A stretch of DNA of 64,000 bases from a virus. Lineage: Duplodnaviria; Caudoviricetes. The stretch covers positions 552 to 64,551 of the IMG/VR virus record IMGVR_UViG_3300031996_000005. One strand, 5' to 3'. Shown here one piece after another: positions 6,896-62,385 of the stretch (its first letter is position 1; each line of letters opens with the position of its first letter). The notes beneath the pieces were generated by a model, which did no database searches, had not been told where the DNA came from, and saw only the letters and a program-made list of their open reading frames with translations. The position numbers and the translations under genes are program-made.

Positions 6896-6896
6896 C

Positions 6897-40258: not shown

Positions 40259-40566
40259 TGCCTGAGAACCAGGAAATCACCGAACTGCCAGTCATTCCGG
40301 CGCCGGTTCCCGCTCCGGGCCCTCCGCCCGCGAGCAACGGTCGTCCGACGATTCGACGCGGTGACCAGGGTCAGCATGTTCGGGTCCTGCAGGCTCGCCT
40401 GGCGCGTGGATTCGCGCTGCTGAGCGACCAGCTTGGCGTTCTTGTGGTCGATGGCGATTTCGGTCCACGTACCGAGGCCTGGATACGTGAATTCCAGCTC
40501 CGATCGGGTCACCTGACCACTGATGGCGTCGTGGGCCCTCGCACTTGGAGAGCGCTCGGGCTATGA
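40255..40566 (+). CDS. stand-alone peptidoglycan-binding domain protein
   Basis: IRRGDQG..V..LQ..L...VDGDFGPRT...FQ...DGVVGPRTW. Confidence 0.85.
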   Translation: MMPENQEITELPVIPAPVPAPGPPPASNGRPTIRRGDQGQHVRVLQARLARGFALLSDQLGVLVVDGDFGPRTEAWIREFQLRSGHLTTDGVVGPRTWRALGL

Positions 40567-40582
40567 GCGGCGGAGTCCCCTG

Positions 40583-41610: not shown

Positions 41611-42594
41611 GTGACGCAGCCTCCCGCCATTCTCACCTACGGCACGCTCAAGTGGTGGGTTGCGGCGTTCCTCGCAGACACAACGGCGGACACGAACGAC
41701 ATCCCCGACCTGAAGCCGGTCAATGGGTCCGCGTTCATCGTCGCGGATATCGCCGAAGACGGCTTGTTCATTTCCCAGGACACCGACACGCCGCTGACCA
41801 TCCTCAAGACGCGCATGGAGCTGCTCATCGTCGATGGGCACCTGCAGGACCGGGCGGGCAACCGTCAGGTCAAGGTGCTGGCGTGTGACTCGCCCGGCCT
41901 GTCGCAGAAGAACTGGCCTTATGTCCTCTCGTTCGAGCTCGATGACGGGCTGACCTTCGGGTCCTTCCCGTTCTACGTCTATACCGATGAGATCGTTGAC
42001 CTCACACAGCGAGCCCCCTTCGAGCTCGTCAACGGTGAACTCATCACCAAGGGTGACCCGGGTGAGGCGGCCACGGTCACGGTCGGGGAAGTCATCACGG
42101 TCGAACCCGACCAGCCGGCTGATGTTGACAACAGCGGAACGGTCAGCGACGCGGTCTTCAACTTCTACATTCCCAAGGGGCGAGACGGTACCGACGGCCG
42201 GAATGGCGAGAGCTACGGCGGTGGGTTCATCGTCCCACCGGTGGATCCCGGCCAGCCGCTGGAACTGACCGTGCAGAGCCGTTGGGGCATCTCCACGGCC
42301 ACCGGGGAGACGTATTACAACGAAGACGGTGTGGTTGGCGTCGAGGCTGCCCTCGTTATGCCGGATCCCTTCACCGGTAACTTCATCCTGTTCAAGCCGG
42401 GCGAGCCCGTTCCCGATATCGGTGAGGCAAAGGGAGAGCAGGAGGGGGTCATTCGCTGGAATGGTTCCGCCTGGAAGTTCAACGGTGTGACGGTCACCGC
42501 CCGACCGACCGCAGGGTATGAGTCTTACCGCTTCAAGGGGGGCACTGTCGCACCAACCTTTGGGGCAACAGGAGATTCCTGGGAAAGCGACTAG
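41611..42594 (+). CDS. virion structural/fibre adaptor protein with short collagen-like segment
   Basis: KGDPGEAATVTVG...FNFYIPKGRDG; C-terminal WNGSAW and RPT..GDSW. Confidence 0.6.
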   Translation: MTQPPAILTYGTLKWWVAAFLADTTADTNDIPDLKPVNGSAFIVADIAEDGLFISQDTDTPLTILKTRMELLIVDGHLQDRAGNRQVKVLACDSPGLSQKNWPYVLSFELDDGLTFGSFPFYVYTDEIVDLTQRAPFELVNGELITKGDPGEAATVTVGEVITVEPDQPADVDNSGTVSDAVFNFYIPKGRDGTDGRNGESYGGGFIVPPVDPGQPLELTVQSRWGISTATGETYYNEDGVVGVEAALVMPDPFTGNFILFKPGEPVPDIGEAKGEQEGVIRWNGSAWKFNGVTVTARPTAGYESYRFKGGTVAPTFGATGDSWESD

Positions 42595-42651
42595 CTAGGC
42601 TTTATGCATTACCATCTCCTGTAATCCCCGACTGACTTAAGGACTACCCCC

Positions 42652-42996
42652 ATGGCTCTGAACGACCCCGCCCTCGTCATCGGCGCAACTGCCATCAAGA
42701 ACGCGATCACGCACCTGCAGCTGCATTCGACCAACGTCGGTGGCACCTGGGCGACTGGCGCTGTCGGCACCCGTGTGGCCTCGACCGGTGCCGTTGACTC
42801 CGATGGTGACATCACCTGGAGCACGGTTAACTTCACCGGCCTCACCGCCAACCAGGCCATTGGTGGCGTCTCCTACTGGTCGGCTTCCACCGCGGGTACC
42901 AACTACGGCGGCTCGGCGACCTCCGGTGACGCGACGGCGAACTCCGCCGGGGAGTACACCGTGACCCTGATCTCGGAGAACAGCACCGCCTCCTAA
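42652..42996 (+). CDS. small virion structural protein
   Basis: 114 aa Thr/Gly/Ala-rich, LQLHS..YWSAST.G. Confidence 0.55.
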   Translation: MALNDPALVIGATAIKNAITHLQLHSTNVGGTWATGAVGTRVASTGAVDSDGDITWSTVNFTGLTANQAIGGVSYWSASTAGTNYGGSATSGDATANSAGEYTVTLISENSTAS

Positions 42997-43042
42997 TCCG
43001 CCGTGAGATCACCGGTCCAATCAATGTAACGAAAGGTGATCG

Positions 43043-46000
43043 GTGGCGATCTCACTACGGGCTGTAGGCGCCACAACCGCCGCAGCAGGGGCGGTTACCG
43101 GTGTCACGGCGGGTGTGCCCGCCGGGCTGACATCCACCGATATCTCGATCCTCACGGTCGAGATCAAGGCCACCACCGCCGGCACCGCACCCACGATCAC
43201 CACCCCCTCGGGGTGGACGCTGATCGGGACCGTCACCAACAACGGCACCCTGGTGGCGGGTATCGACACTGGTTCCAACACGGTCGGCATGTACTACATC
43301 GTTGGCACCTACACGGCTCCGACGATCACCACCACAGGCGCGAACGCCATGGGCGCGGGCATTGTCGCCTTCCAGACGTCCACAGGGGGTACGTGGGACG
43401 TCTCCTCGACAACGACGGGGTCGGACACCTCCAGCGGAACCAACGCCTCTATCACCGGGGCGGCGAACATCAGCGCCGCCACCGGAGATTGGGTCATTGC
43501 CGGGGTCGGCATCTCCGGCGACATCGGGGCGGTGACGGCCGAAACCCTGACCGCGACCGGCGCCACCATCGGCACCCGCGCCAACCGCATCAACCTGGGT
43601 GTCACCACTAACAACGACTCTCGGCTACTCGTCACCGACTGGCCGGTCACCGCCGGCACGTCCAGCGCCGCTCCGGTCTACACATACTCGAACACTTCGG
43701 TTTCCACTTCCCATGCTCGGTTCGTGCGGCTCCGCGAGGTCCCTCCGGTCTACCCGAAGATCGACACGTTCACGGATGACTTCGCTACCGCCGACACCAC
43801 GAAGTGGGTGTCATTCCCCGCAAACACCACCGTCTCGAGCGGACAGCTCAGGATTGTCCCGGATACCGGCTACAGCAGCCTCTACTCGGTCAACACGTAC
43901 GACCTGACCGGCTCGTCGTTCAAGATCGAACTCGTGCAGCCTCCGGCCGTCGGGCTGGGCACTACTGCTGTTTTTTACTACCTGGCCGACGCGGCCGCCA
44001 ACGATGTCCGGTTCGTCTGGGAAGGCGACAACCTCTCCGCCCGCCGCAAGATCGGGGGCACCGAGACTACGATTCTGTCAGCGGCTTACTCGTCGACGAA
44101 TCATCGGTGGCTGCGAATCAGCGAGTCCGGCGGCGTTGTCACCTTCGCTACATCCCCCGACGGCTCGACCTGGACAACCTTCACGACGTGGACCGCGTCT
44201 GGCGTCACGCTATCCGGCGTCAACATCGGAATAGCCGGCGGCTACTACGGGGCAGAGACAGCCCCGGGAACAGCCCTTCTCGACAACCTGAATGGTGCGG
44301 CGGCGGCTCCGCCGGGAGCCGGCACCGCGACCGGTACTTGGACGTTCACGGGTACCGCCAGTGGTAAGCGGACCCCCAAAGCCACGAGCTCGGGTGTGTG
44401 GACCTTTGCAGGGTCTGCTCCTGGTAAGCGAACCCCAAAGGCCACAGCCGGAGGCACGTGGACCTTTGCGGGCAACGCCGTGGGGGGACAGGTCCGCAGG
44501 GGAACCGCAACCGGAACCTGGACTTTCACCGGTTCTACAACGGGTAAGCGGGTACCCAAGGCGACCGCCACGGGCACCCTCGCCTTCGCGGGTACCGCCG
44601 CAGGCGCCGCCCCTGCTGTCGTTGCCAAGACCTACTACGTCGCCGGTACCGGTGGCAGCGACAGCAACAACGGGCAGTCCTCCGGCGCAGCGTGGGCGAC
44701 CATCGCCAAGGTCAACGCGACCACATTCGTCCCCGGTGACACCATCCTCTTCCAGCGTGGCGCTACCTTCACCAGCGCCGTCCTACTCTGTGTCAACTCC
44801 GGCACATCAGTGAACCGCATCACTTACGGCGCTTACGGCACCGGTGCCAAGCCCGTCCTGAATGGCAGTGCCGGTACCCTCGTGCCCCTGACGGTCACCG
44901 GCAACTACGTGACCGTGCAGGACCTCGAAGTCCGAAATGCCGGGACCGCCGCCAACGCGCAGCGCGGCATTTCTTGGGTCGGCACTGACGGCCTTTGTCA
45001 GCGGGTCTACGCCACCGCCAACCCCATCGGAATTCAGGCGGAGAACGGCGCCCACCGGCTCCGGATCACCGATTGCGACCTCGTCGACAACACGATCGTT
45101 ATTGCTCCCGCTGGAGCGGACGACGACTATGGCGCCTCAGGCTGCGTGATTCTGCAGGCTGATAACTGCGAGGTCGACCACAGCCGGATTTCGGGGAACA
45201 TCGGTCCGTCCCCCGACTACGTATACGATGGCTCGGCAGTGGAGATTTACGGCTCCATCGGCACTGTCGTGCACCACAACATCTGTGTCGACAACGAGAC
45301 GTTTTCCGAACTCGGGCACACCCGCACGGCCAACACCGTATTTCACAACAACCTGATCACGTCGACGTTCGGCAACGCCAAGGGTGTCAACGCGCAGGGT
45401 ACGGGCACGTTCGGGCCGGTCCTGAACACTCATTTTCATCACAACACCGTGGTTTTGACTGGGACCACCTCCGTGGGCCTCGTCGCAGGATCCGGATCAA
45501 CGTTCTCCGCGCACAACAACATCATTCAGGCCGCTTACATTGGCTATACGGCGGACAAGATCGATGAGGGGCACAACCTCTACTTCGGCGGGGCTAACGG
45601 TAACGACATCCAGTCGACGGCCAACGCCGGCAGCGGCATCGCGGCCACCTCGGCTATTGCCAACCCACTGTTCATCGGGGGCGGCGACTACCACCTGCAA
45701 GGTGGCTCGCCGGCGATCAACCGGGGAACCACGCTGGCCAACGTCGGCACCGTTGATCTGGATGGTGCTGCACGTACCCAGGGTGCAGCCCCCGACGCGG
45801 GCGCCTTCGAGCGCGCTTCCATACCCGTTGGCACCGGAAGCGGCACTTGGACATTCACGGGTACTGCCACCGGATTCGGTGCGGCGGGATACACCCTGAA
45901 ATACGCGATGTCGTCCGCAGCCCCGACGCTACCCGGCGATGCCGCACTGACCGCTTCGGATATCAGCTTCGGCGCTGGCGCGGTATTCGAGGTCCCCTCC

Positions 46001-48562
46001 ACGGACCTGATCTATGACCCGAACAAGGTCCTGCAGATCAAGGCGGCGGTCGCGTCCACCACTATCGCCGAATCGGTTACCAACAACGTTTACGCCGAAA
46101 TTACGGTTAGCCGAACGGGTGGGTGGACACCGAAGACCCTCCGCATGAAATCCGCCCGCGGTGGTGCTGGGACCGCACGCGGATTCGCCATCCGCAGCAG
46201 CGTCGATGGCTATACCGCGGATCTGATGTATGACGACTCGATCGATACGGCTCGACCGACGCTCACCCAGTACACCGCGGATATCTCCTCTCTGGGCACG
46301 CAGACCGGGGCGGTCACGTTCCGGCTGTACCACTTTGCACCCACGACCCCTAACACCACACACCACGATGACTGGGAGATCGGCTACGTAGTTCCCCGCG
46401 GGGGCACCGCGACAGGTACGTGGAATTTCACCGGCAACGCCACTGGGAAGCGCACCCCTAAGGCTTCCGCTACGGGCGTGTGGACGTTCACGGGTGCAGC
46501 TGTCGGCAAGCGCGTCCCGAAGGGCACGGCCGCCGGCACCTGGAACTACATCGGCAGTGTGGTCGGGAAGCGCAGCCCAAAGGCGACGGCAGTCGGGTCC
46601 GCCACCTGGACAGGCACTGCTATCGGGACTGCTCCGGTCGTCGGGGCGAAAACCGGTGTCGCCACAGGGGCAACGGCCTGGGTCGGGACGGCTGTCGGTA
46701 AGCGTGCCCCTAAAGCCTCATCTACGGGCACATGGTCGTTCTCGGGAGCCTCAACTGGTAAGCGCGCCCCGAAGGCGACGATCTCCGGCGTGTGGACGTT
46801 CTCAGGCAGTGCGGCGGGAAAGCGCACGCCCAAGGCCGCAGCTACCGGCTCGTGGACGTTCACGGGCACCGCCACAGGAACTGCCTCCGCCACCCCCGGC
46901 GACATCCTCAACATCGGCACCGCCGACACTAACCACTTCGATCTGCAAATGGCCCGGTCCGGCGACGCAACATGGACCGAGATCACGCAGGCGCAGATTG
47001 CCTCCGGATACTCCGAAGCCCCCTACTTCGCGACGGTTCGGAGCGGTACCGCCGTCCAGTTCTCGGTCCCCCTCGACGCACCCCTGGTGGGCACCGCAAC
47101 CGGGCCGCGCTCGGAGTTGCGCGAGGTCAACGCCGACGGAACTGACGCCGCCTACAACATCAACACCGGCACCCACGAGTTCCACGGGCGCACTCGGATC
47201 ATGTCCTCCACCCCGGACATCGTGGCCGTGCAGATCCACAATGGGACCTCAGACCGCATCGCGATCCGAACCCAGCTGGTGTCGAGCACCCTGCGACTTC
47301 GGGTGCGCGTCAACGGATCATCGGTCACCCTGACTGGCGGTTCACTCGACGCGTTCAACCCCTACGTTGTCGGCACCGAATTTGAGTGGAAGATCCGCGT
47401 CGACAACGGCGCGATCAGCGTCTACATCGACAACATGACCACGCCGGTCTACACGGCACCGGCCGGCACCCTGGCGCCGACCGCGGGCATCTCCACGTGG
47501 TACTCCAAGGCCGGTGTTTACGCACAGGCGACTGGAGCCGGGACATCCAGCGCCGTCACCGAGCTCCGCGACCTGTCGGTCACTCACACGGCTGGGGCGG
47601 CGCCTGGACAGGGCGCCGCTACCGGTTCATGGGCCTTCACCGGGGCAGCTACCGGTAAGCGTGTCCCGAAAGCCACGGGCCCCGGCGTGTGGACCTTTAC
47701 CGGCAATGCAGTCGGAAAGCGCACTCCTAAAGCCTCGTCTACGGGCTCCTGGGCGTTTTCAGGCTCTGCTATCGGCACCAAGCCCTTGGTGGCGACGCTC
47801 TACACGCTCGCCTACGCGGGGAACACTGCTGCGCCGACCCTGCCCGCCGATGGGGCACTGACCGCGACCAGTATTACCGCCGGAGCGGGCGGCATCCTCA
47901 CGATCCCTCTCTCTACCACTGCTACCACCGCCTACGAACCCAACAAGGTCATCTCCCTGACCAACCGCACGTCGACCGTCGGAACCGAGGCGTCGGCCGT
48001 CAGCTCCGACATCTACTTCGAGTTCACGGTTGGCCGCACCGGCGGCTGGACCCCCAAGACTCTTCGCGCCAAGATCGCAGCTGGGGGTACGGCCGGTCCG
48101 CGCGGATTCATGGTCCGTTCCTCATACGACGGCTACACCACCAACCTGATAGCTCGAGGACCGGAGACCCCGACAACGGAACAGCTCCGGCCGAACCTGA
48201 ACCAGTTTTCGGCCGATCTGTCCGGAATGGGCACGCAGAGCGGCCCCATCACCTTCCGCGCCTACGTCTACGCGGCTGGCAACACCAACCGTGGTTACGA
48301 CTTCGATGACATCGAAATCGACTACACGGGCTTCTCTTCCAACACTGCCACCGGAACCTGGTCGTTCACCGGCAGTGCAGTAGGAAAGCGCAAGCCCAAG
48401 GCCTCCGCTACTGGTTCATGGACGTTCACCGGCGCCGCCATCGGGAGGTCTTCCCCGGCCGGTCGAGTGACCCGTAAATTCAATGGAACTGCGTGGGTGG
48501 TTGCAACAACCAAGAGATACAACGGATCCGCCTGGGTCAACACCGTCGTCACTGGCCTCTAA
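43043..48562 (+). CDS. 1839-aa modular protein: beta-sandwich, lectin-like, beta-helix, duplicated CBM-like domains, PL7 alginate-lyase-like domain, 20-aa repeats
   Basis: TYYVAG.GSDSNNG..GDTILF beta-helix start; DYHLQGGSPAINRG; RSELRE/QIH/YSKAGVY PL7 motifs. Confidence 0.75.
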   Translation: MAISLRAVGATTAAAGAVTGVTAGVPAGLTSTDISILTVEIKATTAGTAPTITTPSGWTLIGTVTNNGTLVAGIDTGSNTVGMYYIVGTYTAPTITTTGANAMGAGIVAFQTSTGGTWDVSSTTTGSDTSSGTNASITGAANISAATGDWVIAGVGISGDIGAVTAETLTATGATIGTRANRINLGVTTNNDSRLLVTDWPVTAGTSSAAPVYTYSNTSVSTSHARFVRLREVPPVYPKIDTFTDDFATADTTKWVSFPANTTVSSGQLRIVPDTGYSSLYSVNTYDLTGSSFKIELVQPPAVGLGTTAVFYYLADAAANDVRFVWEGDNLSARRKIGGTETTILSAAYSSTNHRWLRISESGGVVTFATSPDGSTWTTFTTWTASGVTLSGVNIGIAGGYYGAETAPGTALLDNLNGAAAAPPGAGTATGTWTFTGTASGKRTPKATSSGVWTFAGSAPGKRTPKATAGGTWTFAGNAVGGQVRRGTATGTWTFTGSTTGKRVPKATATGTLAFAGTAAGAAPAVVAKTYYVAGTGGSDSNNGQSSGAAWATIAKVNATTFVPGDTILFQRGATFTSAVLLCVNSGTSVNRITYGAYGTGAKPVLNGSAGTLVPLTVTGNYVTVQDLEVRNAGTAANAQRGISWVGTDGLCQRVYATANPIGIQAENGAHRLRITDCDLVDNTIVIAPAGADDDYGASGCVILQADNCEVDHSRISGNIGPSPDYVYDGSAVEIYGSIGTVVHHNICVDNETFSELGHTRTANTVFHNNLITSTFGNAKGVNAQGTGTFGPVLNTHFHHNTVVLTGTTSVGLVAGSGSTFSAHNNIIQAAYIGYTADKIDEGHNLYFGGANGNDIQSTANAGSGIAATSAIANPLFIGGGDYHLQGGSPAINRGTTLANVGTVDLDGAARTQGAAPDAGAFERASIPVGTGSGTWTFTGTATGFGAAGYTLKYAMSSAAPTLPGDAALTASDISFGAGAVFEVPSTDLIYDPNKVLQIKAAVASTTIAESVTNNVYAEITVSRTGGWTPKTLRMKSARGGAGTARGFAIRSSVDGYTADLMYDDSIDTARPTLTQYTADISSLGTQTGAVTFRLYHFAPTTPNTTHHDDWEIGYVVPRGGTATGTWNFTGNATGKRTPKASATGVWTFTGAAVGKRVPKGTAAGTWNYIGSVVGKRSPKATAVGSATWTGTAIGTAPVVGAKTGVATGATAWVGTAVGKRAPKASSTGTWSFSGASTGKRAPKATISGVWTFSGSAAGKRTPKAAATGSWTFTGTATGTASATPGDILNIGTADTNHFDLQMARSGDATWTEITQAQIASGYSEAPYFATVRSGTAVQFSVPLDAPLVGTATGPRSELREVNADGTDAAYNINTGTHEFHGRTRIMSSTPDIVAVQIHNGTSDRIAIRTQLVSSTLRLRVRVNGSSVTLTGGSLDAFNPYVVGTEFEWKIRVDNGAISVYIDNMTTPVYTAPAGTLAPTAGISTWYSKAGVYAQATGAGTSSAVTELRDLSVTHTAGAAPGQGAATGSWAFTGAATGKRVPKATGPGVWTFTGNAVGKRTPKASSTGSWAFSGSAIGTKPLVATLYTLAYAGNTAAPTLPADGALTATSITAGAGGILTIPLSTTATTAYEPNKVISLTNRTSTVGTEASAVSSDIYFEFTVGRTGGWTPKTLRAKIAAGGTAGPRGFMVRSSYDGYTTNLIARGPETPTTEQLRPNLNQFSADLSGMGTQSGPITFRAYVYAAGNTNRGYDFDDIEIDYTGFSSNTATGTWSFTGSAVGKRKPKASATGSWTFTGAAIGRSSPAGRVTRKFNGTAWVVATTKRYNGSAWVNTVVTGL
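44325..48440 (+). repeat. about 19 copies of a ~20-aa repeat (ATG(T/S/V)WTFTG.A.GKR.PKA) in five clusters
   Basis: visible in translation between globular domains. Confidence 0.85.
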
Positions 48563-48589
48563 AGCCGTAAGTTCAGAAGGGAACGTCCC

Positions 48590-49396
48590 ATGGCCTCCTA
48601 TGTCATCTACACGCAAGCTTCCATCGCGGAAGAGCTCGCGGCAAAGGCTGACCTGGTCCACACGCATCCTGAGTATGCGCTGGTCAACCACAACCACGCG
48701 ACGTTGTATGCGCCGCTCGTGCACACCCACACGGGCTTTGCGCCCACCTCGCACACGCACGCGATCTCTGATCTGACCGCAACGGGTCCGCGAGATGACA
48801 CCCATTTCCTTCGGGGCGATGGCACCTGGGCTATCCCGCCGGGCACGGGTGGAGGGGGTACCGGCGGTGTTACCGATCACGGTGCACTGACCGGGCTCGC
48901 CGATGATGACCATCCGCAGTACCACACGGATGCGCGTGGAGATGCCCGCTATTCGCGCACCACACACACGCACACCGCCGATGGGATCACCGATGCGACG
49001 GTGACCGGTAAAGCCCTTATGCGTGTGGTTGATGCCGCTGCGGCCCGCACGCTCATCGGAGCCAGCACCCTGGCCTTGGGTACGACGGCGACCACGGCGA
49101 TGGCCGGCAACAAGACCTTTACCAAGGCCGAGGTTGGTCTTGCCAATGTGGATAACACCGCGGATGCGAGCAAGCCGGTCTCCACGGCTCAGTCAGCGGC
49201 GATTGCGGCCGCGGTTGCCCCGGTTGCACCGAAGTCGGTTACGCAGGCAATGGTTTATCACGATGGCACACCTGGCGGCGGGACGAGGCCCACGGGCTAC
49301 TTCCGCGTTCTGTGGGTCAACCCGGTAGGAACCAACTATGCTCGTCCAACGAATATGGCAATTGGCGATGAGTGGGAAAAGGAGACAGCCGTCTAA
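48590..49396 (+). CDS. fibre-like protein with His-x-His repeats
   Basis: HTH/HNH repeats, DHGALTGLADDDHPQY, VGLANVDNTAD; C-terminal RPT..GDEW. Confidence 0.7.
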   Translation: MASYVIYTQASIAEELAAKADLVHTHPEYALVNHNHATLYAPLVHTHTGFAPTSHTHAISDLTATGPRDDTHFLRGDGTWAIPPGTGGGGTGGVTDHGALTGLADDDHPQYHTDARGDARYSRTTHTHTADGITDATVTGKALMRVVDAAAARTLIGASTLALGTTATTAMAGNKTFTKAEVGLANVDNTADASKPVSTAQSAAIAAAVAPVAPKSVTQAMVYHDGTPGGGTRPTGYFRVLWVNPVGTNYARPTNMAIGDEWEKETAV

Positions 49397-51954
49397 TGAC
49401 GACGCCCCCCGGCCCGGTTGATAGCTCGGTCGACATCCCCGGTGCCTCGGTGGGTGAAGTTGCCTCGGATGTTTCGGTCACCGTCACCAAGCCCACCGGT
49501 GTGGTTGCCGGTGAGATGCTCTTGACTCTGATCTCTAACTCGGGGTCGGTCACCATCCCTCCGTTGCCCTCGGGGTGGACGGATGTGGCGTCGATGAACG
49601 TGAGTTCGCACTCTAGCCGGCTGTGCTACAAAATCGCGACTTCCAGCGAGCCCGGGAGTTACACCTTCGATTCGGGTACTACCACCGCCGGTCGCCTGTC
49701 GGTGTCGATCCTTCGGGTCAAGGACTTCAACACCACCACACCTTTCGACGTTGCGGCCTACACCTACAGCTCGGGAGTGACGGGTGTGCCCGTCCAGGAG
49801 GTTGTGTTTCCCTCGGTAACCACGGTTACCCCCGGGGCGCTGGTTCTGTACTTCCACACCATGAACGGGACGGGTCCGACGTCGACGTCAGTGCCCCCTG
49901 CGGGTCTGACGAAGGTCGCCGAGGCCCCAACGGTCGGCCGTTACCACGTCGGTTATGCCGAACCTCGTCCCACTGCCGGTGCCACCGGCACGCGCACCTT
50001 CGGTCAGACCAGTGCCACCGCTCGGTACATGGGGGGCATTCGGGTAGTTCTGCGCCCGACAGCGGTGGCCAGTGCCGCCAAGCCCACGGTCAGTGCCGGG
50101 GCCGATGCCCAGCTCGTCAAGGGGTCCACGTTCACCCGTACGGCGACCGAGAGCTCGAACGGTGCCCCGATCACCAGTCGCAACTGGTCGATCCTCTCGG
50201 GACCGTCCGGGCCGGTGGACAGCATTGGCACCGCGGCTGCCCTGTCGTGGAGCACCGCGGAGGGATCGAGCGGAAACTCTCCCGCGAACGGCGACATTAC
50301 GGAGCCGGTCTACAAAGAGATCGCTCTACAGCTCACCTCAACGGCGGAGAACTCCACCAAGGACTGGACGACCGCGTACCGATACATTGAGGACATCGGC
50401 GATGGTCGGGGGTACACCGGCGGTATTGTCGGGTTCTGCTCGGCGACGTTCGACATGGAGATTCTGCTTAAGCGCTATCAGCAGATTGCTCCGAGCAACT
50501 CGCTGGTGCCGTTCCTGGACGAGTTCGCCACGATTTCGGCGCAGAGCACGCAGGCGGCTCGCAACACCATGAGCCACACGCTGCTGGATCCGCTGAACTT
50601 TGTGGCGGCTTGGCAGAATGCAGCGGACAACGATCCACTCTTCCGGCAGGCTCAGCGGGACGAACGGGACCGTGTGTACTGGAACCCCGCCTTTTCACAG
50701 GCTGTCGCTGACGGTGTGGGCCCTCTTGGCTTGGCCATTCTCTACGACATCTCGGTCAACCACGGCCCGGGTACTGACTCGCAGTCCTTTGGGGGCATTG
50801 TTGACACTGCCCGCACAGTTACCGCTCCTCCCTCGGAGGGAGGTAATGAGGTTGCCTACCTGAATGCGCTAACGAATGCTCGCGAGGCGGTGCTTATTCA
50901 GTGGGGTGACATTACGCCGGACCCCGCGACTCCTCCGTCTACGCCGAAACCGACGGTGACGCTGACGGTCCCCACCAGCGGGGCCACGGTGTCCGGTACC
51001 GCCGTGACACTGGACGTGACCACCACCAACACCACTTCGGTCGCCTACTTCGTCGACGGCACACAGGTTGCCAGCGATGGAGTTGGTACCAACGCCGATG
51101 GGTTCCAAGCGACCTTCGACAGCACGACGCTGACCAATGGCACCCACCAGGTAACGGCCAAGGCTACGGGCGCGGGTGGTACTACCACCTCATCCGCGGT
51201 CTCGATCACCATTTCCAATGTGGTCACACCACCCCCCTCGACGACTGCTTCAAGGGCAACTTTGCTGCAGCATTGGAAGCTCCAGCTACCGATCAACTCC
51301 GACAATGCCGGCAACGTCGACGAGATCACCCGTGATCAGCTCGTCGCGGGCTATACGTCCCAATGGTTCAGCGATACGTCGGACGGCAAGGGGTTCAAGT
51401 TCCACACGCCGGTTGATGGAAAGACGACCTCAGGATCGCAGTACCCGCGTACTGAGCTGCGCGAGATGAACTCCAATGGCACCTCGACCGCCGGGTGGAA
51501 CTCGGGCGGGGTGTTCGATGGCACCATCCGGACATTTCAGGCCAACTACAAGATCACACATCTCCCCGCGGGTGACCGTGAGACGACCATCTTCCAGATC
51601 CACAATGGTGACACTGAGGTCACCACCGTTCGCACCACCGAGACCCCGACTGGCATCCGACTCGCGGCTCGTAAAAACGGTTCCTCGATCACTCCGTACT
51701 TCAACACGAACTATCAGTACGGCACGTCATTCGACATCAAGGTCGAAGTCAGCAGTCGGGTCAAGATCTGGTATAACGGCGTTCTCCAGCATGATTATCT
51801 ATTCTCTGACCTGACCGTCGGAGCGGCCGGCCTGTTCTATCTGAAGGCCGGCAACTACCTTCAGGCCAACACCACTACGGCGTCTGCTTCCGAATATGGT
51901 GACGTTGAGATTCGCCCAGTGGCTGGGCAGACCACCTTCCTGACGCGTTCCTGA
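49396..51954 (+). CDS. modular protein: beta-sandwich, PKD-like N-half, GH46 chitosanase (lacks C-terminus), Ig-like, PL7 lyase
   Basis: AENS..YIEDIGDGRGYTGGIVGFCS (GH46); RTELRE/QIH/YLKAGNYLQ (PL7). Confidence 0.85.
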   Translation: MTTPPGPVDSSVDIPGASVGEVASDVSVTVTKPTGVVAGEMLLTLISNSGSVTIPPLPSGWTDVASMNVSSHSSRLCYKIATSSEPGSYTFDSGTTTAGRLSVSILRVKDFNTTTPFDVAAYTYSSGVTGVPVQEVVFPSVTTVTPGALVLYFHTMNGTGPTSTSVPPAGLTKVAEAPTVGRYHVGYAEPRPTAGATGTRTFGQTSATARYMGGIRVVLRPTAVASAAKPTVSAGADAQLVKGSTFTRTATESSNGAPITSRNWSILSGPSGPVDSIGTAAALSWSTAEGSSGNSPANGDITEPVYKEIALQLTSTAENSTKDWTTAYRYIEDIGDGRGYTGGIVGFCSATFDMEILLKRYQQIAPSNSLVPFLDEFATISAQSTQAARNTMSHTLLDPLNFVAAWQNAADNDPLFRQAQRDERDRVYWNPAFSQAVADGVGPLGLAILYDISVNHGPGTDSQSFGGIVDTARTVTAPPSEGGNEVAYLNALTNAREAVLIQWGDITPDPATPPSTPKPTVTLTVPTSGATVSGTAVTLDVTTTNTTSVAYFVDGTQVASDGVGTNADGFQATFDSTTLTNGTHQVTAKATGAGGTTTSSAVSITISNVVTPPPSTTASRATLLQHWKLQLPINSDNAGNVDEITRDQLVAGYTSQWFSDTSDGKGFKFHTPVDGKTTSGSQYPRTELREMNSNGTSTAGWNSGGVFDGTIRTFQANYKITHLPAGDRETTIFQIHNGDTEVTTVRTTETPTGIRLAARKNGSSITPYFNTNYQYGTSFDIKVEVSSRVKIWYNGVLQHDYLFSDLTVGAAGLFYLKAGNYLQANTTTASASEYGDVEIRPVAGQTTFLTRS

Positions 51955-51988
51955 CGCGCACTCCTACTTAAGAGCGGGTAGTTGCTTT

Positions 51989-54900
51989 ATGGTTCTGGCC
52001 TCCGTCAGCCGGGTGGCGATGCACCGGGCATTGATCAACTCGGGCAATCTCAGCCTGACGACCCCATTCTCTTGGTCGGTCTATGGCGACACCTTCACGA
52101 TGAGCACGCCGCCGACTGTTCCGAGCGAGACCAGTACCTACTCGGCCGGAACATATGTGCTGCGGTACTCGGCCACCAACTCAGCTGGAACGGGGACGGA
52201 TGACGTCACGATCCTGGTGAGTGAGGCTCCCGCCGGGGTGTCGCCGCTAGTGCGCGTGCAGGCCCTCGGCGGGTGGAACGCCAGTGATGGGACGACGCAT
52301 ACGGCCGTCTCTACCCCCGTTCTTGCCAATGGGGCTGCGCCCGGAAACCTGCTGATTGCTGCCTGGTCTGTCGACCTGGATGCGGGAGTCTTCACGCCTC
52401 CAGCGGGATGGACCGTGCTGGCAAACCGCCCCGCACCATCGGTCTCGCTCCTGGTGTGTGGAAAGATCGCAGCTGGCGGTGAAAAGCAGGCTGGAGCTAG
52501 CTGGACCACACCCCAGGACCAGGCGAACGCGCTTATTGCTGAGTACGCCTTCGTGGAAGAGGGCAATCCCTACGGGCCGAACCAGTTCCCGAGCTACATT
52601 GACGTTCAGTACACCGATCTTTTGCTCGATCCGGCTCCGGCCATCGTCGACGGAATGGCCCTGGCATTCATTGCTGCGGCGAACACGCGAACGGCGCCGA
52701 GCAAGTTCGACCCGGTTGCTCCAGGTTGGACTAGGGTTTTCAACCTGACCGACGTAACGGATACCTCCGCGGGTCTGGCCCTTCTGGAAAAGCGGGTTGT
52801 TGCTGGCGAGAACCTGGTTACGACCTTCGGCTATACGGCTCTTACCCGCCGACAGGGATTCATCCTGCTGCTCAACCAGGAAGGTGCGGGAGCCACGATC
52901 CCTCCGGACCCCACGCCTACACCGGACCCCACGCCTACACCGGCCGGTGTCATCAATGAGACCGGCTCCCTAGCGAGTCTCGTCGCCGAGGCCTACACCA
53001 ACCGCGTCTCGGCTTCTGGCGATGAGGCGTACGACGTTCCCACCACCGCGCAGGCCGCAGCCCTCGCCGGGGCCTTCCAAAAGATTATGAGTGGTGACCT
53101 CGGCGGGGCCGCTTCCGCTGCCGACCCGCTCGGCTACGACGTCGTCCTCTTCTCGGACACCGCCGTTAACCGGCAGCACGCCGTGCTCCGCGAGCGCTTC
53201 CCCGCTTCGCGCTACTGGGGTCTGTACGTGTGGTCTCGCGATGCTGCGAAGACTGGACTGATCGTGGAGGCGCCCCACACCCGGGCGGACGGCAGCACCC
53301 ACACCGAGGGACAGTCGCTGTTCACCAAGAACAACGCGAAGGCGTTCCTCATGGCGACTGCGCATCGCAACTCGAACGCAGCCACCGACGTCGATGGTGA
53401 CCGCGTTTCGGATATGGCCAACGCGGATGGCGTGGTGAACCCCTTCCAAGAGGTTCACAAGGTTGTCGCTCTTGCCGGATCGACAGTCGTCCAGCTCCAT
53501 GGGTATGCCGATTCCTCGAACACCAGCTACGACATCATCATCTCAGAAGGCAAGTCTTCGTCCTCTCAGCGGACGCAGGACATCGCGACGTCCCTGCGTA
53601 ACGCCACCGGCCTCCGCGTCGCTGTCTACGACGGCACCGTCGGTGCGGGCCTTGGGGCCACCGGCAACGTTCAGGGCATCCAGTCTCGGGCAGCGGGGAA
53701 CTACTGGCTGCACGTCGAGCAGAACAACGCGACCCGGACCGACCCGGCTGCTCGGGACAAGATCGAGAACGTGCTGGCCACCCTGACCAGCGCAGCACCC
53801 ACGCCTCCACCCCCGCCGACTCCTACTCCCACGCCTACATCCCCCTGGCCTGCCCTGAAGTGGGCTGCGCCAAGTGGGTATACCGGATACACGGTCAAGA
53901 ACCTCAGTTCGACCACCGCGGTCAACGTTGCCGACGGCGGGGGCGGTGACGTGTGGATCAAGCTGCCCAAGGATAAGGCAGTGGCACCCCTCCGCATCCA
54001 GAACTGCCGGAATGCGGTGTTGATCGGTGGACAGATCAATGCGGAGCCCACGGAGGTTCTCGACGGCCAGGATCAGCGCCTGATTTACATCAAGGACTGC
54101 ACGGGCACAATCCACATCGAGGGTGTCCTGCTGAATGGAAAAGTCAGTGGGGCCACGTCGGATGCCGTTGCCATCAATGCTCCCAACGCCCTGGTTCAGA
54201 TCCAGCGCGTGCGGGCTGAGGCAATGCAGGGAAGCTCCAACAACCACGCCGACGTCATTCAGCCCTGGGGTGGAGTGCGTGAGTTCCGGATGGATTATGT
54301 CACGGGATCTTCGGACTATCAGGGTCTGCACGTGGGTGAGGCCGCCGGAAAGGTGATCGGAAAGGGCACCATCAGCAATACCAACATCTATGCCTCGGGC
54401 ACTCAGGCAGATGGCAAGGCGGGCCACTTGATCTGGCTCAATCCCGGCAAGTATCCAATGACGGTGGAGAACGTTTGGATTAAGCCGAGAACGGGTCGCA
54501 CCTTTGCCAACTCCATCTGGCCGCAGTCGAATGACCCGACCTACCCCGCCAAGATCGTAAATGGGGTTGCGACGTGGCCGTTAATCACGGGCAGTGTGCG
54601 CGAGGGACGGCCGGCTAAGGACTTTGCTCCAATGGATGCCGTCGGCCTGGACTACCTTGCCCCGACGGGTACCACTCCGCCGCCCGATCCCACGCCGACC
54701 GATCCCACGCCTCCGCCGCCGACGGGAACCTCCCCGACCCTGAATAGTCGGGTTGTCGGTTTCCCTGAGATCGGCCAGGGCCGGGTCAAGGTGAACACGA
54801 ACGCGGTTCGAGCTCGCCTGAAGGTTGGTACCGACCCCGGCGTTACGACGAACATTATCTATAGCCCGTACGCCACACCAAACGCTCAGGGTGACGTTCT

Positions 54901-56050
54901 GCTGACCATTCCTCTGCCGTCCAAATATGACGCCGGTGAGTACTTCTACCGAGTCGCCATGGTGAATTCCGGGGGTAGCGAATTCCTCGACACCAAGGTC
55001 ACCGTCGGGCGCCTCCTCACCGCGCCCACGGGCCGTGTGGGACTCACCATGAGCGGGGGTTCCTGCATCAAGGCGACAGACAGTGACAGCGCACTGGCGA
55101 TGGTCAACCGTCAGGACGACATCGGCTTCATGAATGGAGATCTCTGGTACGCCGACGGCAGCGGCACCGACCTCGCGAACTACCGCTCCAAGATGGATGA
55201 CAAACTGCGGGCAACCAACCTCGCAAAGTGGTTCGCCACCACCCCGATGATCTACACGCCATCGGACCATGACTACGCGATGAACAATGATGGCCTAGGG
55301 CCCGGCACGGCCGGTACGAACTGGAATGCGGTATTCCGCGAGAAGTGGCCACACCCGGCTCTGGCGGTGACCGGGACGCTGGGCTGCTACTGGACCCGGC
55401 CGTGGGGCACCGCTATTCGGATCATTGTTCTGGACACGCGCTCCTTTGCCGCGAAGGGGTCTACGAAGCTGGGGTCGACCCAGAAGGCCTGGCTCAAGAA
55501 CGTGATCAGCACGATGACTGAGGATCTCGGAATCGTCATCCAAGACGGCGTCTGGATCGGCCCGACGGATACCACCTCGGATGACTGGCCGAGCGCGATT
55601 GCCGAGCGGAACGAGATTGGTGACCACATCGCCGCGTCGGGTAAAAAGGTCGTGTGGTTCGGCGGGGACGCACACGCCCTAGCTGTGGATAATGGCACCA
55701 ACAGCCGAGGGGGTTTCCCGGTCTACCAGTGCGCCCCCCTGAACAACTCGGCCAGTCAGAAGGGCGGTCCGTACAGTGGTGGACAATATCCGTCCTCCGG
55801 TTCGGCTGTGGTCCAGCAGTACGGCCGACTCGTTGTCACCCTCGGGACAACCACGTTGACGTGCGCTTTTACGGGTTACTCCTCAGATAACACGGTGAGG
55901 AAAACTCTCACGACTACTTTTCCCGCGAAGCCCGCTCCCGTTGGTTCCGTCTCGGGCCCTGGGCGGTTCGTGTGGAACGGTACAAGCCTGGTCCGCCGCG
56001 AAGTTCAGCGATGGAATGGGACGACTCTATCCGGCACCGATCAACAGTAG
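51989..56050 (+). CDS. modular protein: GH46 C-terminal fragment, PKD-like C-half, beta-sandwich, Zn-hydrolase-like, beta-helix, PhoD-like phosphatase
   Basis: SRV..HR..I..GNL.L..P..W..YGD; AGTYVLRYSATN; GSC..GDLWYAD..DHDY..LDTRS..GGDAH; start codon uncertain. Confidence 0.75.
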   Translation: MVLASVSRVAMHRALINSGNLSLTTPFSWSVYGDTFTMSTPPTVPSETSTYSAGTYVLRYSATNSAGTGTDDVTILVSEAPAGVSPLVRVQALGGWNASDGTTHTAVSTPVLANGAAPGNLLIAAWSVDLDAGVFTPPAGWTVLANRPAPSVSLLVCGKIAAGGEKQAGASWTTPQDQANALIAEYAFVEEGNPYGPNQFPSYIDVQYTDLLLDPAPAIVDGMALAFIAAANTRTAPSKFDPVAPGWTRVFNLTDVTDTSAGLALLEKRVVAGENLVTTFGYTALTRRQGFILLLNQEGAGATIPPDPTPTPDPTPTPAGVINETGSLASLVAEAYTNRVSASGDEAYDVPTTAQAAALAGAFQKIMSGDLGGAASAADPLGYDVVLFSDTAVNRQHAVLRERFPASRYWGLYVWSRDAAKTGLIVEAPHTRADGSTHTEGQSLFTKNNAKAFLMATAHRNSNAATDVDGDRVSDMANADGVVNPFQEVHKVVALAGSTVVQLHGYADSSNTSYDIIISEGKSSSSQRTQDIATSLRNATGLRVAVYDGTVGAGLGATGNVQGIQSRAAGNYWLHVEQNNATRTDPAARDKIENVLATLTSAAPTPPPPPTPTPTPTSPWPALKWAAPSGYTGYTVKNLSSTTAVNVADGGGGDVWIKLPKDKAVAPLRIQNCRNAVLIGGQINAEPTEVLDGQDQRLIYIKDCTGTIHIEGVLLNGKVSGATSDAVAINAPNALVQIQRVRAEAMQGSSNNHADVIQPWGGVREFRMDYVTGSSDYQGLHVGEAAGKVIGKGTISNTNIYASGTQADGKAGHLIWLNPGKYPMTVENVWIKPRTGRTFANSIWPQSNDPTYPAKIVNGVATWPLITGSVREGRPAKDFAPMDAVGLDYLAPTGTTPPPDPTPTDPTPPPPTGTSPTLNSRVVGFPEIGQGRVKVNTNAVRARLKVGTDPGVTTNIIYSPYATPNAQGDVLLTIPLPSKYDAGEYFYRVAMVNSGGSEFLDTKVTVGRLLTAPTGRVGLTMSGGSCIKATDSDSALAMVNRQDDIGFMNGDLWYADGSGTDLANYRSKMDDKLRATNLAKWFATTPMIYTPSDHDYAMNNDGLGPGTAGTNWNAVFREKWPHPALAVTGTLGCYWTRPWGTAIRIIVLDTRSFAAKGSTKLGSTQKAWLKNVISTMTEDLGIVIQDGVWIGPTDTTSDDWPSAIAERNEIGDHIAASGKKVVWFGGDAHALAVDNGTNSRGGFPVYQCAPLNNSASQKGGPYSGGQYPSSGSAVVQQYGRLVVTLGTTTLTCAFTGYSSDNTVRKTLTTTFPAKPAPVGSVSGPGRFVWNGTSLVRREVQRWNGTTLSGTDQQ

Positions 56051-56061
56051 AAAGGCATCAC

Positions 56062-57693
56062 ATGCGTACAACCTCGCGCATCGCGGGAATGGGGGTGGTG
56101 GTTGCCCTACTGGCTATGGGGGTTCTGTTCGCCCCTTCGGCCTCCGCGGCCGCTCCAGCCGCCCCGTCGCTCAACTACGACGTCAACCCCGACCGCTCCG
56201 TGGATCTCGTCTGGACCAAGGTGCCTGGCGCCGTCCAGTACCGGGTCTTCGAGGACGTCAACACTCCCACCAACGGTACCGGCGCTGGCGTGGCCACGGT
56301 GACCGACAACAAGTCCCGTCGTGGCCCGCTAGGGCCCGGGAACTTCGGCTACTTCATCAAGGCCATCAACTCGGCTGGCGAACTATCGGTGGCCTCCAAC
56401 CGGGCCGAATTCACCGTGTCCTCGGATCCGGCCTCGCCGGACGTCAGCTCCATTACCTTCGACAAGCCCGCCACGGGTGCGACGGTCAGTGGGACGACCG
56501 TTCAGTTTGACGCAACCTGCGCCGAGCCGTGCTCCCGCATGGAGTACCGGGTCGACGGCCAGGTCGTTGGCTCGGACACCACCACCGCGGACGGCCTCGG
56601 CGAGGCGTGGGACTCCACCACGGTTCCGAACGGCGACTACTACATCCAGGCCGGCGGCACCAGCGCTGCAAGTGGTCAGGTGGAGGTCACGACGCCCCGC
56701 AAGATCACGGTGAACAACACCGCGGCGACCCCCACTCCTACTCCCACTCCTACTCCTACGCCAACGCCGTCGCCGACTCCTACTCCTACTCCTACCCCTA
56801 CTCCTACCCCGACGCCGAGCCCCACTCCGACACCGACGCCTAGCGGCTCGAAGCTGAGTTGGGCGCCGCCGACCGGGTACGCCAACTTCCCCGCCAAGAA
56901 CGTCACTTCGGCTGGCTTCACTAGCGTCAGCGGCGGTGGCGGGGACGTGCGGATCGTGCTCCCTAAGGACAAGTCGGTTGGTCCCATCCAGATCAGCTCC
57001 TGCCGCAACGTCGTCCTCATCGGTGGCAAGATCAAGGTGCTGGCGTCCGAGACGGCCAACGGTGCCGACCAGCGGGCCGTCTACATCAAGGGCTGCACCG
57101 GCACCGTGCACATCGAGGGACTGGAGATCGATGGCAATGTCTCCGGGTCCACCGCTGACGCCTTCGCAGTCAGCGCTCCTTCCGCCACCGTGCAGGTCGA
57201 GAACGTGCGCGCCATTGGCATGAAGGGCTCGTCGAACAACCACGCTGACTGCTTCCAGCCGTGGGGCGGTGCCAAGGCCTACCGGATCGACCGATTCACC
57301 TGCTCGACGAACTACCAGGGGCTGCACGTCGGTGAGGACCTGGGCCAGATCGGTTCCGGCGATATCCGCAACACGAACATCTTCTCCTCGGGTACCCAGT
57401 CGGATGGCAAGGGCGGGCAGTACATCTGGCTGCCGTCCTCCAACGATTACCCGGTGAAGCTGAGCAACGTGTACATCTCCGGCCGCACCGGTGACTCGTT
57501 CAGCCGTTCCATCTGGCCGAGCACCGACAATTCGAGCTGCAAGGCGTCGATCTCCGGTTCCCCGGCGGTCGCCACGTGGCCCGGTTGCTCGTGGATCACC
57601 GGCAAGGTCACCCAGGGCAAGCCCTCCTCCGGTGACTTCGTCCCCGCGGGTTCGGTCGGCCTCACCTATGCCTCCCCGGGCTACGGTGCGTGA
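56062..57693 (+). CDS. secreted protein: signal peptide, FN3, Ig-like, Pro-Thr linker, beta-helix
   Basis: MRTTSRIAGMGVVVALLAMGVLFAPSASA-A; GAAAGG RBS; beta-helix paralogous to the 53850-54660 region. Confidence 0.8.
   Translation: MRTTSRIAGMGVVVALLAMGVLFAPSASAAAPAAPSLNYDVNPDRSVDLVWTKVPGAVQYRVFEDVNTPTNGTGAGVATVTDNKSRRGPLGPGNFGYFIKAINSAGELSVASNRAEFTVSSDPASPDVSSITFDKPATGATVSGTTVQFDATCAEPCSRMEYRVDGQVVGSDTTTADGLGEAWDSTTVPNGDYYIQAGGTSAASGQVEVTTPRKITVNNTAATPTPTPTPTPTPTPSPTPTPTPTPTPTPTPSPTPTPTPSGSKLSWAPPTGYANFPAKNVTSAGFTSVSGGGGDVRIVLPKDKSVGPIQISSCRNVVLIGGKIKVLASETANGADQRAVYIKGCTGTVHIEGLEIDGNVSGSTADAFAVSAPSATVQVENVRAIGMKGSSNNHADCFQPWGGAKAYRIDRFTCSTNYQGLHVGEDLGQIGSGDIRNTNIFSSGTQSDGKGGQYIWLPSSNDYPVKLSNVYISGRTGDSFSRSIWPSTDNSSCKASISGSPAVATWPGCSWITGKVTQGKPSSGDFVPAGSVGLTYASPGYGA
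56726..56840 (+). repeat. Pro-Thr linker, degenerate hexanucleotide tandem repeat
   Basis: (ACTCCT)n-like, encodes TPTPTPTPTPTPSPTPTP... Confidence 0.85.
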
Positions 57694-60645: not shown

Positions 60646-61536
60646 GTGCCCCCAAGCCAACGCCAGCCGCTGATTGAGTATCTCGGGGTGCAGCGGCAGG
60701 CCGATGCCGAGCTCAATCGCGTGCTGGCTCAGGCTGCGCGAGACGCCGAGCAGCGGGTCCTTGCCCTGGAGCTCGCCCCCCCGGGGATTGGTAACCGGGT
60801 TCGTCAGGCGCAGCTGCTCCAGGTCATCGCAGCCATTCGAGAGCTGCAGGAGCAGCTCTGGCTGCAGGGCATCGGCCCACTGATCGTGCGTCGGCTGGCA
60901 GCTGCCCAGCGCGCGGCAATGCGTGCCGCGGAGTTCATGGATGACGTGCTGTTCGCAGCCCTCCCCCGCCAGCAGGCTGAACTGCTACGTGATGCCGCTC
61001 GCCAGATGGCGAACTCGGGGCTAGTGACCGAAGCCCATCGTCGGGAAGTGAACCTGTCGGCCCGAGTGTGGCGGAATGCCTCGCTGTCCTCCGGAGCGCT
61101 CGAACGGGCCATCCGCGCCGGCATCATTCAGGGACTCTCCGCGCGCGAGCTCGCCGGCACTGTCCGGAGCATGGTGAACCCCTCCACACCGGGAGGTGTG
61201 TCCTATGCGGCTATGAGGCTGGCTCGCACCGAGTTGAACAACGCGTTTCACGAGCGTCAGATCGCGGTGGCGCGAAACAAACCGTGGGTTGTCGGCGTGC
61301 AATGGAACCTCTCCAAGTCTCACCCCAAGAAAGATAAGTGCGACGAGTACGCAACCGAGAACGCGCATGACCTAGGCCGGGGTGTATTCCCCACTGGTGG
61401 TGTACCTTTTAAGCCACATCCCCATTGCCTGTGCTATATGACGTATGAGATGCAGTCCGAGGATGACTTTGTGGCGGATCTCAGACAGTACATTCGCACC
61501 GGCCGACAACTTCCCTCCGAGCGAGGGACTGCTTGA
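60646..61536 (+). CDS. MuF-like minor capsid protein
   Basis: RLARTE..A....W...H...D.CD...P.HPHCLC. Confidence 0.85.
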   Translation: MPPSQRQPLIEYLGVQRQADAELNRVLAQAARDAEQRVLALELAPPGIGNRVRQAQLLQVIAAIRELQEQLWLQGIGPLIVRRLAAAQRAAMRAAEFMDDVLFAALPRQQAELLRDAARQMANSGLVTEAHRREVNLSARVWRNASLSSGALERAIRAGIIQGLSARELAGTVRSMVNPSTPGGVSYAAMRLARTELNNAFHERQIAVARNKPWVVGVQWNLSKSHPKKDKCDEYATENAHDLGRGVFPTGGVPFKPHPHCLCYMTYEMQSEDDFVADLRQYIRTGRQLPSERGTA

Positions 61537-61620
61537 CCCACACCGGGACCGTGCGCCCATCGTGTGGTTGCTAGATCGGGTCGTACAGAGCGACGCCCGC
61601 ATAACACCGGAGGACCGACC

Positions 61621-62385
61621 ATGCTGCGCACCACTCTTCGCCCGTCCGACTTCACGGATCAGGCCGCCGCCATTCTCGCCGCCTCGAAGGCTCGCCGTGC
61701 GGATCTCCGCATGGAGCTTATCGACAATGACGAGGGTGACGGTCCTGATGACGTGGACGACGACGACGAGGGGGATGACGCCTCGGACGATGCCGATGAC
61801 AAGGACGACCCGAAGGCCTCGAAGGACAAGAGCTCCGATGGGGACGACACGGTTGACCGGGCTGAGTACGAGCGCGTCAAGCGGCATCGCGCCGCCGCGG
61901 ATCGTCGGAAGGCTGAGCTCGAAGCTGAGGTCAGCACCCTCAAGACCGAGAACGCTGCGCTGAAGGCAGAGGGCAAGGACGGAAAGCTCGACGAGGCAAC
62001 CACCGCGCGGGTCGCCGAGCTCGAAAAGACCGTTACTGAGTCATCCAAGACGATTCAGACCCTCCGCATCAACAACGCATTCCTGTCCGCCAACGACTTC
62101 ACCTGGCACGATCCGGAGGACGCCATGCGTCTGGCGGATCTGTCCGAGGTGGAGATCGAAGAAGACGGAACGGTTGTCGGTCTCAAGGAAGCCCTTAAGA
62201 AGTTGGCAAAGGCCAAGCCTCACCTCATCAAAAAGGCCGAGGTCAAGGTTGACAAGGACGACGCTGACGAAGAGGACAGGAACCCCTCCGGTTCTGCGAC
62301 AAACGGTCGACGCAAGGGTGGCCGGGCCAAGCCTGACCGCGCTGCGCTGTCCAAGACGTACCCCGTTCTCGCCACCCGGCGCTAA
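61621..62385 (+). CDS. capsid scaffolding protein
   Basis: GGAGG RBS; acidic stretch, coiled coil, L....PHL motif. Confidence 0.8.
   Translation: MLRTTLRPSDFTDQAAAILAASKARRADLRMELIDNDEGDGPDDVDDDDEGDDASDDADDKDDPKASKDKSSDGDDTVDRAEYERVKRHRAAADRRKAELEAEVSTLKTENAALKAEGKDGKLDEATTARVAELEKTVTESSKTIQTLRINNAFLSANDFTWHDPEDAMRLADLSEVEIEEDGTVVGLKEALKKLAKAKPHLIKKAEVKVDKDDADEEDRNPSGSATNGRRKGGRAKPDRAALSKTYPVLATRR

Follow-up and report, generated by a model that had tools for sequence, protein, structure and literature searches.

A chitosanase divided between two genes of a soil actinophage by an inserted lyase module, and the predicted reassembly of its pieces

In T4-like phages, several genes are known to exist in pieces, including nrdA of Aeh1 (split by mobE), the T4 topoisomerase genes 39/60 (split by mobA) and gene 43 (divided into 43A/43B) (PMC2988022). 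Here, we describe a gene in pieces in a soil actinophage (Duplodnaviria; Caudoviricetes), in which a family GH46 chitosanase, itself nested in a PKD-like domain with an Ig-like fold, is distributed over two consecutive open reading frames (ORFs), ORF A and ORF B. The window, i.e., the whole stretch of DNA that was analysed, comprises 64,000 nucleotides (nt; positions 552 to 64,551 of IMG/VR virus record IMGVR_UViG_3300031996_000005). As in the T4-like cases (PMC2988022), an insertion splits a phage coding region into two polypeptides and relatives keep it in one piece; there the polypeptides reassemble into a working enzyme, and for the window reassembly is predicted. Compared to those genes, the insert of the window lacks a homing endonuclease, most of it codes for a new enzymatic module at the C-terminus of the upstream piece, the site of the cut is within a glycoside hydrolase domain that is embedded in an Ig-like one, and the interrupted gene appears to be an appendage/depolymerase gene rather than one for a replication enzyme. 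What is new here is the interruption by an enzymatic module that is itself translated, together with a cut within an enzyme fold that is nested in another.

Gene fission usually occurs between domains. The intact PKD[GH46] chitosanases of actinophages, such as those of Streptomyces phage IceWarrior (protein P0174) and P0005, have the same module with the same nesting point (...AALSW / GH46 / GxYVLRY...), 48–58% identity and the same catalytic and invariant residues, but they are single chains, whereas the copy in the window is cut in the WGDxx|xxxR loop and carries a Big_7-PL7 extension. The chitosanase of Streptomyces sp. N174 (1CHK) and its relatives 4OLT, 4QWP and 4ILY share the GH46 fold, and equivalents of E22, D40, R190 and R205 are present in the window; however, those are secreted single-domain enzymes, whereas the window copy extends over two ORFs and is cut between the positions of N174 residues 201 and 202 (by spacing). 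In chaperone-usher pili, donor-strand complementation allows strands of the next chain to complete an incomplete Ig-like sandwich and thereby to link the subunits; the window would differ in donating two strands together with the helix-hairpin of a nested enzyme. In addition, GH46 loops of phage tail proteins are able to accept large inserts, as observed in the P0233 family (aa 585–749) and P0234 (aa 244–521), although those inserts are in frame, at two other loops and within one chain, whereas the insert of the window brings a stop and a restart. A further protein, P0157, has four GH46 pieces, the last of which is truncated at the protein end and may be another split.

Anatomy of the split and its intact relatives

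An earlier reading made from the DNA letters alone (the sequence-only reading) had proposed the nested order PKD[GH46[linker-Ig-PL7-stop]], with the GH46 C-terminus and then the PKD C-half downstream of it. This anatomy was read correctly, and all of the coordinates given for it hold. The features of the locus are listed below; residues of ORF A are counted on 860 amino acids (aa) from GTG 49372 unless 852 numbering is stated, and L004 is a second phage contig described in the next section.

49396–51954, + strand: ORF A, 852 aa from ATG 49396 or 860 aa from GTG 49372
50080–50256, + strand: N-half of the PKD/Ig-like domain, known in intact form from P0004 and P0003
50311–50916, + strand: N-part of the GH46 chitosanase (Pfam PF01374 positions 1–179 of 210, E 1.5e-56, aa 320–508)
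50917–52000, + strand: inserted block of ~1084 nt (3n+1) whose borders are accurate to within a few nt
50950–51159, + strand: Big_7 bacterial Ig domain (aa 527–596, Pfam E 3.8e-08)
51265–51912, + strand: PL7 domain (Alginate_lyase2, PF08787; aa 632–847, Pfam)
51937–51958, + strand: 11-bp tandem duplication, TTCCTGACGCG twice, perfect and identical in L004
51952–51954, + strand: TGA stop of ORF A
51955–51988, + strand: spacer of 34 nt (33 nt in L004) with a conserved core, TAAGAGCGGGTAGTT, a possible weak Shine–Dalgarno (SD) sequence
51989–56050, + strand: ORF B, 1353 aa, first start ATG 51989
52001–52102, + strand: C-terminal piece of GH46 (helix and beta-hairpin) with R8 and the invariant L23, W29, Y32 and G33
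52145–52219, + strand: last two beta-strands of the PKD-like domain (dN/dS 0.146)

ORF A probably starts at ATG 49396 rather than at GTG 49372, the start of the longest ORF, because of an AAAGGAG SD sequence, a TAATG overlap with the previous gene and an 852-aa database copy (P0158). Its domains are, in order, an N-terminal beta-sandwich, the PKD N-half, the GH46 N-part, a proline (Pro) linker, Big_7 and PL7. The GH46 N-part has the catalytic Glu in TAENST and the catalytic Asp in GDGRG, ends with WGDIT, and aligns with residues 5–195 of N174 chitosanase (1chk) with E22 and D40 conserved. The PL7 domain scores 114 bits against a curated cut-off of 29.7 and covers profile positions 3–218 of 225; RTELR, QIH and YLKAGNYLQ in the translation are its PL7 motifs (R(T)ELR, QIH and YxKAGxYxQ). 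About four residues separate the end of the domain from the ORF A stop, and the PL7-terminated protein P0009 stops at the corresponding TTF.

ORF B, whose N-terminus reads MVLASVSRVAMHRALINSGNL, consists of four new residues (MVLA), the GH46 C-piece, the PKD C-half, a beta-sandwich, further domains and a PhoD-like C-terminus, and its frame is open from 51944, as the sequence-only reading had noted. The 33-aa GH46 C-piece is not scored by Pfam alone. When ORF B residues 6–38 were searched against the whole PDB with phmmer, just four matches were obtained at E ≤ 10, all of which were GH46 chitosanases matched at their last ~34 residues (214–247 of 248 in 4qwp, E 0.003). By spacing from the last aligned helix, R8 of ORF B is the equivalent of N174 R205, in agreement with what the sequence-only reading had stated for the Arg of the SRV motif. 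With the K319L-like PKD profile (PF22352), the ORF B piece scores 16.5 bits and the intact P0004 scores 22.7 bits, both of which are under the 27-bit cut-off.

The GH46 profile match is complete only if ORF A and ORF B are taken jointly. In the profile of phrog_20173, the family of phage PKD[GH46] chitosanases, ORF A 207–508 (852 numbering) corresponds to positions 234–527 and ORF B 6–77 to positions 528–595 (E 2.9e-10), the profile continuing from 527 to 528 across the ORFs. Similarly, BLASTP against the intact P0005 aligned ORF A 240–513 with residues 425–693 (3e-77) and ORF B 8–78 with residues 699–763 (1e-18), and positions 52007–52102 are thus placed on the GH46 C-terminus, where the sequence-only reading had put them. 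Between the conserved WGD and the invariant Arg, there are five residues in intact proteins (e.g., YQANG) and five here (IT + SVS), which implies that the insert removed no GH46 residue. All columns that are invariant across 29 GH46 sequences are retained over both ORFs, including E91, D109 and R269 (equivalent to R190) in the ORF A fragment (A2) and R8 in the ORF B fragment (A1).

Uninterrupted homologues, for which the sequence-only reading had suggested a search, were found in three forms. P0004 (996 aa) has an intact PKD-like domain without GH46, whereas P0005 and most 500–600-aa actinophage chitosanases have GH46 nested in PKD at the same point in a single chain. In P0003 (1789 aa), the region of ORF A 11–294 is joined directly to that of ORF B 53–302 via an intact PKD in one frame, and this protein has its own intact GH46 elsewhere. 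As a single-gene relative, P0004 resembles P0003. Since P0003 joins both regions and follows a gene (locus L003) whose product is 72% identical to that of the gene preceding ORF A (48590–49396), ORF A and ORF B of the window correspond to one gene in a related phage. In the predicted structure of the intact module (AlphaFold, P0005 421–763; mean predicted local distance difference test score (pLDDT) 92.5; TM-score 0.92 to 4qwp, normalised by target length), the cut site of the window maps to loop 272–278, between helices 253–271 and 279–288, and the two PKD halves together form a beta-sandwich.

Conservation of the split and selection on its pieces

A full-library HMMER search with the inserted module identified P0006, a protein 90% identical that is encoded on a 6,976-bp contig (L004) from a different JGI (Joint Genome Institute) metagenome. 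L004 and the window have in common the WGDIT/PDPATPP junction, the TGA stop, the 11-bp duplication and the ATG; ORF B of L004 starts MVMASVSRVAMHR, and the start conserved across both is MV(L/M)ASVSRV. This ORF B (L004:2195–5575) is without aa 311–896 of the window protein (a 586-aa block, window 52919–54676) and has an extra C-terminal domain of ~365 aa. The missing block is bounded by Pro/Thr-rich linkers, whole domains being swapped at such linkers. Because its ORF B is differently built, L004 represents another phage and not a second copy of the same assembly, and the split, which is common to both, must predate their divergence (synonymous divergence, dS, 0.25–0.39). The suggestion that the arrangement is a recent recombinant is therefore unsupported.

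These observations also bear on the concern that the contig could be a chimera built from reads of two phages, one of the options that the sequence-only reading had listed. Although the window derives from a soil metagenome assembly, a ~90% identical contig of another metagenome has both junctions, the stop and the restart; moreover, a chimera would not resume the same domain, after the insertion, at precisely the residue where it was left, and 246 of 246 sampled 31-mers of 50300–52600 are present in independently built contigs of one soil run (which may be the source sample). An assembly artefact is hence hardly credible.

Beyond L004, no further protein starting with the GH46 C-piece was found with ORF B 1–80 as the query, and no relatives emerged from scans of viral contigs in which the insert, the N-part of PKD/GH46 and the N-terminus of ORF B served as queries. 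Metagenome and genome scans revealed only ordinary intact GH46 genes (L005 and L006), and GenBank phages have only the GH46 part in common, with 65–78% DNA identity.

Selection on the pieces was examined by Nei–Gojobori counts and binomial tests in one pairwise comparison, the window versus L004. Both GH46 pieces are under strong purifying selection: the N-part shows 49 synonymous and 16 nonsynonymous changes (omega, the dN/dS ratio, 0.086; p 1e-17), and the C-piece in ORF B shows 6 synonymous and 0 nonsynonymous changes (omega 0; p 2.6e-4), with all six at third positions of the ORF B frame. The omega of the N-part is the lowest nonzero value among all segments, and both GH46 values are below those of the flanking segments. 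The other values are 0.146 for the PKD C-half, 0.149 for PL7, 0.195 for Big_7, 0.278 for the ORF B body and 0.455 for the PKD N-half. Since the split is older than the divergence of the two phages and the pieces are under purifying selection, both GH46 fragments have been maintained since the cut. It could be argued that the insertion killed the GH46 enzyme, that its fragments are unassociated leftovers and that the phage uses other enzymes, given that many further depolymerase-like domains (PL7, PhoD and others) are present in the same gene island and one loss might be tolerated. However, such strong constraint on both fragments after the split, in the correct frame and without disabling mutations in either phage, makes this explanation very unlikely.

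Predicted reassembly, expression and origin of the two chains

A complex of ORF A 236–520 and ORF B 1–84 was predicted by using our own alignments; a model of the two ORFs had been proposed as a check by the sequence-only reading. The ipSAE score was 0.86 compared to 0.02 for the best control; in the calibration of this score, 58 of 80 solved complexes and 2 of 110 mismatched pairs attained this mark. Three runs share at least 89% of the contacts, with a partner pLDDT of at least 82, and the contacts connect ORF B 7–38 with the GH46 part and ORF B 47–80 with the PKD N-half. The pLDDT of chain 1 was 88–89 with the true partner and 72–73 with unrelated partners. Such a model speaks for the compatibility of the pieces but is no proof of binding.

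It is probable that we are dealing with a conserved gene-in-pieces whose two products are predicted to rebuild the chitosanase and the Ig-like domain by fragment complementation. This option, already among those considered in the sequence-only reading, is favoured because the split is conserved in a second phage, both pieces are under purifying selection and the complex model passes. The gene would now be made as two chains, with ORF A ending after the new PL7 domain and ORF B starting at ATG 51989. The first ~78 residues of ORF B (the GH46 helix and hairpin and two PKD strands) would dock into the incomplete folds of ORF A, and docking would both rebuild the chitosanase and hold the two proteins together non-covalently. 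The domain layout, the shared split and the constraint on both pieces are observed, whereas separate translation, refolding, catalysis and a place in the virion are predicted.

Several points weigh against fragment complementation. The pass of the complex model may reflect memory of solved intact GH46 structures. The split is carried by two genomes only, the selection test is one pairwise comparison in which the C-piece rests on six changes, and purifying selection is evidence of constraint on the pieces rather than of catalysis. In addition, the ribosome-binding site of ORF B is weak, the conservation of its 15-nt core not being significant with two sequences, and both ORFs are located outside the main tail module, between the endolysin and the terminase. 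A purely structural role, in which the chains dock and the halves are kept to hold ORF B on ORF A while the chitosanase no longer works, would fit the complex model and the selection data equally well, and tethering would be needed anyway if the ancestral protein was one chain. Nevertheless, neither the catalytic Glu and Asp nor any column invariant in the family has been lost, and the omega of the GH46 N-part is below those of the PKD halves, although a clasp would depend on these halves just as much, such that loss of catalysis appears unlikely.

With regard to expression, fragment complementation would involve separate translation of ORF A and ORF B. The sequence-only reading had found no clear ribosome-binding site for ORF B; the site is indeed weak, but an SD-like core is conserved in L004. 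Window and L004 differ at 5 of 34 spacer positions and by one indel, which is about the synonymous rate, while the 15-nt core TAAGAGCGGGTAGTT and the ATG are unchanged, and the core is suggestive of a weak SD sequence. In viral contigs, 22 chance matches to this core were found, none of them next to GH46 or PL7 motifs. Neither a promoter nor a terminator was found at the junction, and no Rfam family, group I/II introns included, matched 49300–52600 at E ≤ 1. An imperfect inverted repeat, CCACCTTCCTGACG / CGTCAGCCGGGTGG (51932–51945 and 52003–52016), lies on either side of the stop, spacer and start, and its arms are paired in the minimum free energy fold of both phages.

Recoding into one chain of ~2,200 aa would be a different solution. 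ORF B is in the +1 frame relative to ORF A in the window but, owing to the spacer of 33 instead of 34 nt, in the same frame behind two stops (TGA and TAG) in L004, and this unequal relation makes a shared frameshift or a single readthrough unlikely and disfavours the +1 recoding that had been suggested by the sequence-only reading. A bypass of the T4 gene 60 type is a special case, since both phages have a take-off codon directly followed by a stop and an identical codon for landing: TCC-TGA (51949–51954) is followed, 49 nt downstream, by TCC 52001–52003, the fifth codon of ORF B. If ribosomes were to hop this 49-nt gap part of the time, the chain would have the three-level nesting PKD[GH46[Big_7-PL7]] and the exact residue count of an intact GH46, and the take-off codon lies within a small hairpin of 5 bp. 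However, the RNA fold at the junction is not more stable than those of shuffled sequences (z −0.6 and −0.5), a matching codon would occur among the first five by chance in ~8% of cases (our own estimate), the frame relation is not conserved between window and L004, and the ATG and the SD-like core are conserved. Recoding in any of these forms, bypass included, is considered highly improbable; if the bypass were true, programmed translational bypassing would gain a second natural family, here in an actinophage.

The origin of the two-chain arrangement may be approached through the inserted block, which contains the Pro linker, Big_7, PL7, the stop, the spacer, the ATG and three codons, and is situated in the GH46 loop between the last two helices. 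Its GC content and GC content at third codon positions (GC3) are similar to those of the flanks, and no direct or inverted repeats flanking it were found. Pfam finds Big_7 and PL7 only, with no match to a homing endonuclease or an intein/Hint domain in the insert. A microhomology, GGYGACATTACG (GDIT), had been pointed out at 50290 and 50905; it is present at both positions but is at chance level, as the 2.4-kb region contains more than 20 short repeats of equal quality. In the 11-bp duplication, the TGA of the first copy of TTCCTGACGCG terminates the upstream extension of the ORF B frame, and that of the second copy is the stop of ORF A; if one copy is deleted, ORF B is still out of frame and ORF A ends at a TAA three codons later.

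The ancestor may have had one appendage gene (N-terminal beta-sandwich, PKD, body and PhoD), which would first have gained a common phage module, GH46 nested in the PKD-like loop. Later, the block of ~1.08 kb would have landed in the loop between the last two GH46 helices. The simplest history would be the illegitimate insertion of a donor fragment spanning a gene boundary, i.e., a donor 3′ gene end (Pro linker, Big_7, PL7 and stop) plus an intergenic spacer with its ribosome-binding site and four codons of the next gene; a fragment of this kind would be consistent with the end of PL7 near the ORF A stop, as in the PL7-terminated P0009. Selection would have retained only an event without loss of GH46 residues. 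Two complementary deletions were set aside as a less parsimonious origin. In other parts of these genes, domains are gained or lost at Pro-rich linkers, as indicated by the comparison of the window with L004.

Genomic setting and implications

The window is nearly the whole of the 64,551-bp virus record, which has terminal repeats, and its GC content is 62.6%. A PHROG scan and the surrounding reading frames gave the following landmarks.

3283–6042: true tape measure (PHROG scan)
6023–6895: Dit (PHROG scan)
6864–10001: tail protein (PHROG scan)
40523–41416: endolysin (PHROG scan)
43043–48562: very large gene, 1839 aa, upstream of the fibre-like gene
48590–49396: gene for a fibre-like protein, directly before ORF A, with matches to head-fibre and tail-fibre PHROGs
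57756: terminase (PHROG scan)
59143: portal (PHROG scan)
60646–62385: head morphogenesis and scaffold genes (PHROG scan)

ORF A and ORF B belong to a run of very large genes in the interval from endolysin to terminase (giant multi-enzyme genes, 41611–57693). A virion or appendage location of both proteins is suggested by homologues fused to tail proteins (Sipho_Gp37 and DUF5047) and by the fibre-like neighbour, in whose product H-T-H-x motifs are repeated along with a Gly run. The 1839-aa gene was also considered as a tape measure and was ruled out, the PHROG scan placing the canonical tape measure at 3283–6042.

Two diverged phages have retained, under purifying selection, a cut within a GH46 domain that is in turn embedded in an Ig-like domain. 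For annotation, some caution is advisable: ORF A could be taken for a truncated chitosanase, and residues 1–80 of ORF B resemble nothing. If the halves refold, this would be a natural split enzyme in which complementation doubles as the joint of two large appendage proteins, and GH46 engineering would gain a split site already tested by evolution. It would also show that a donor fragment spanning a gene boundary enables phages to gain an enzymatic module (PL7) and, in the same recombination event, to divide an oversized gene.

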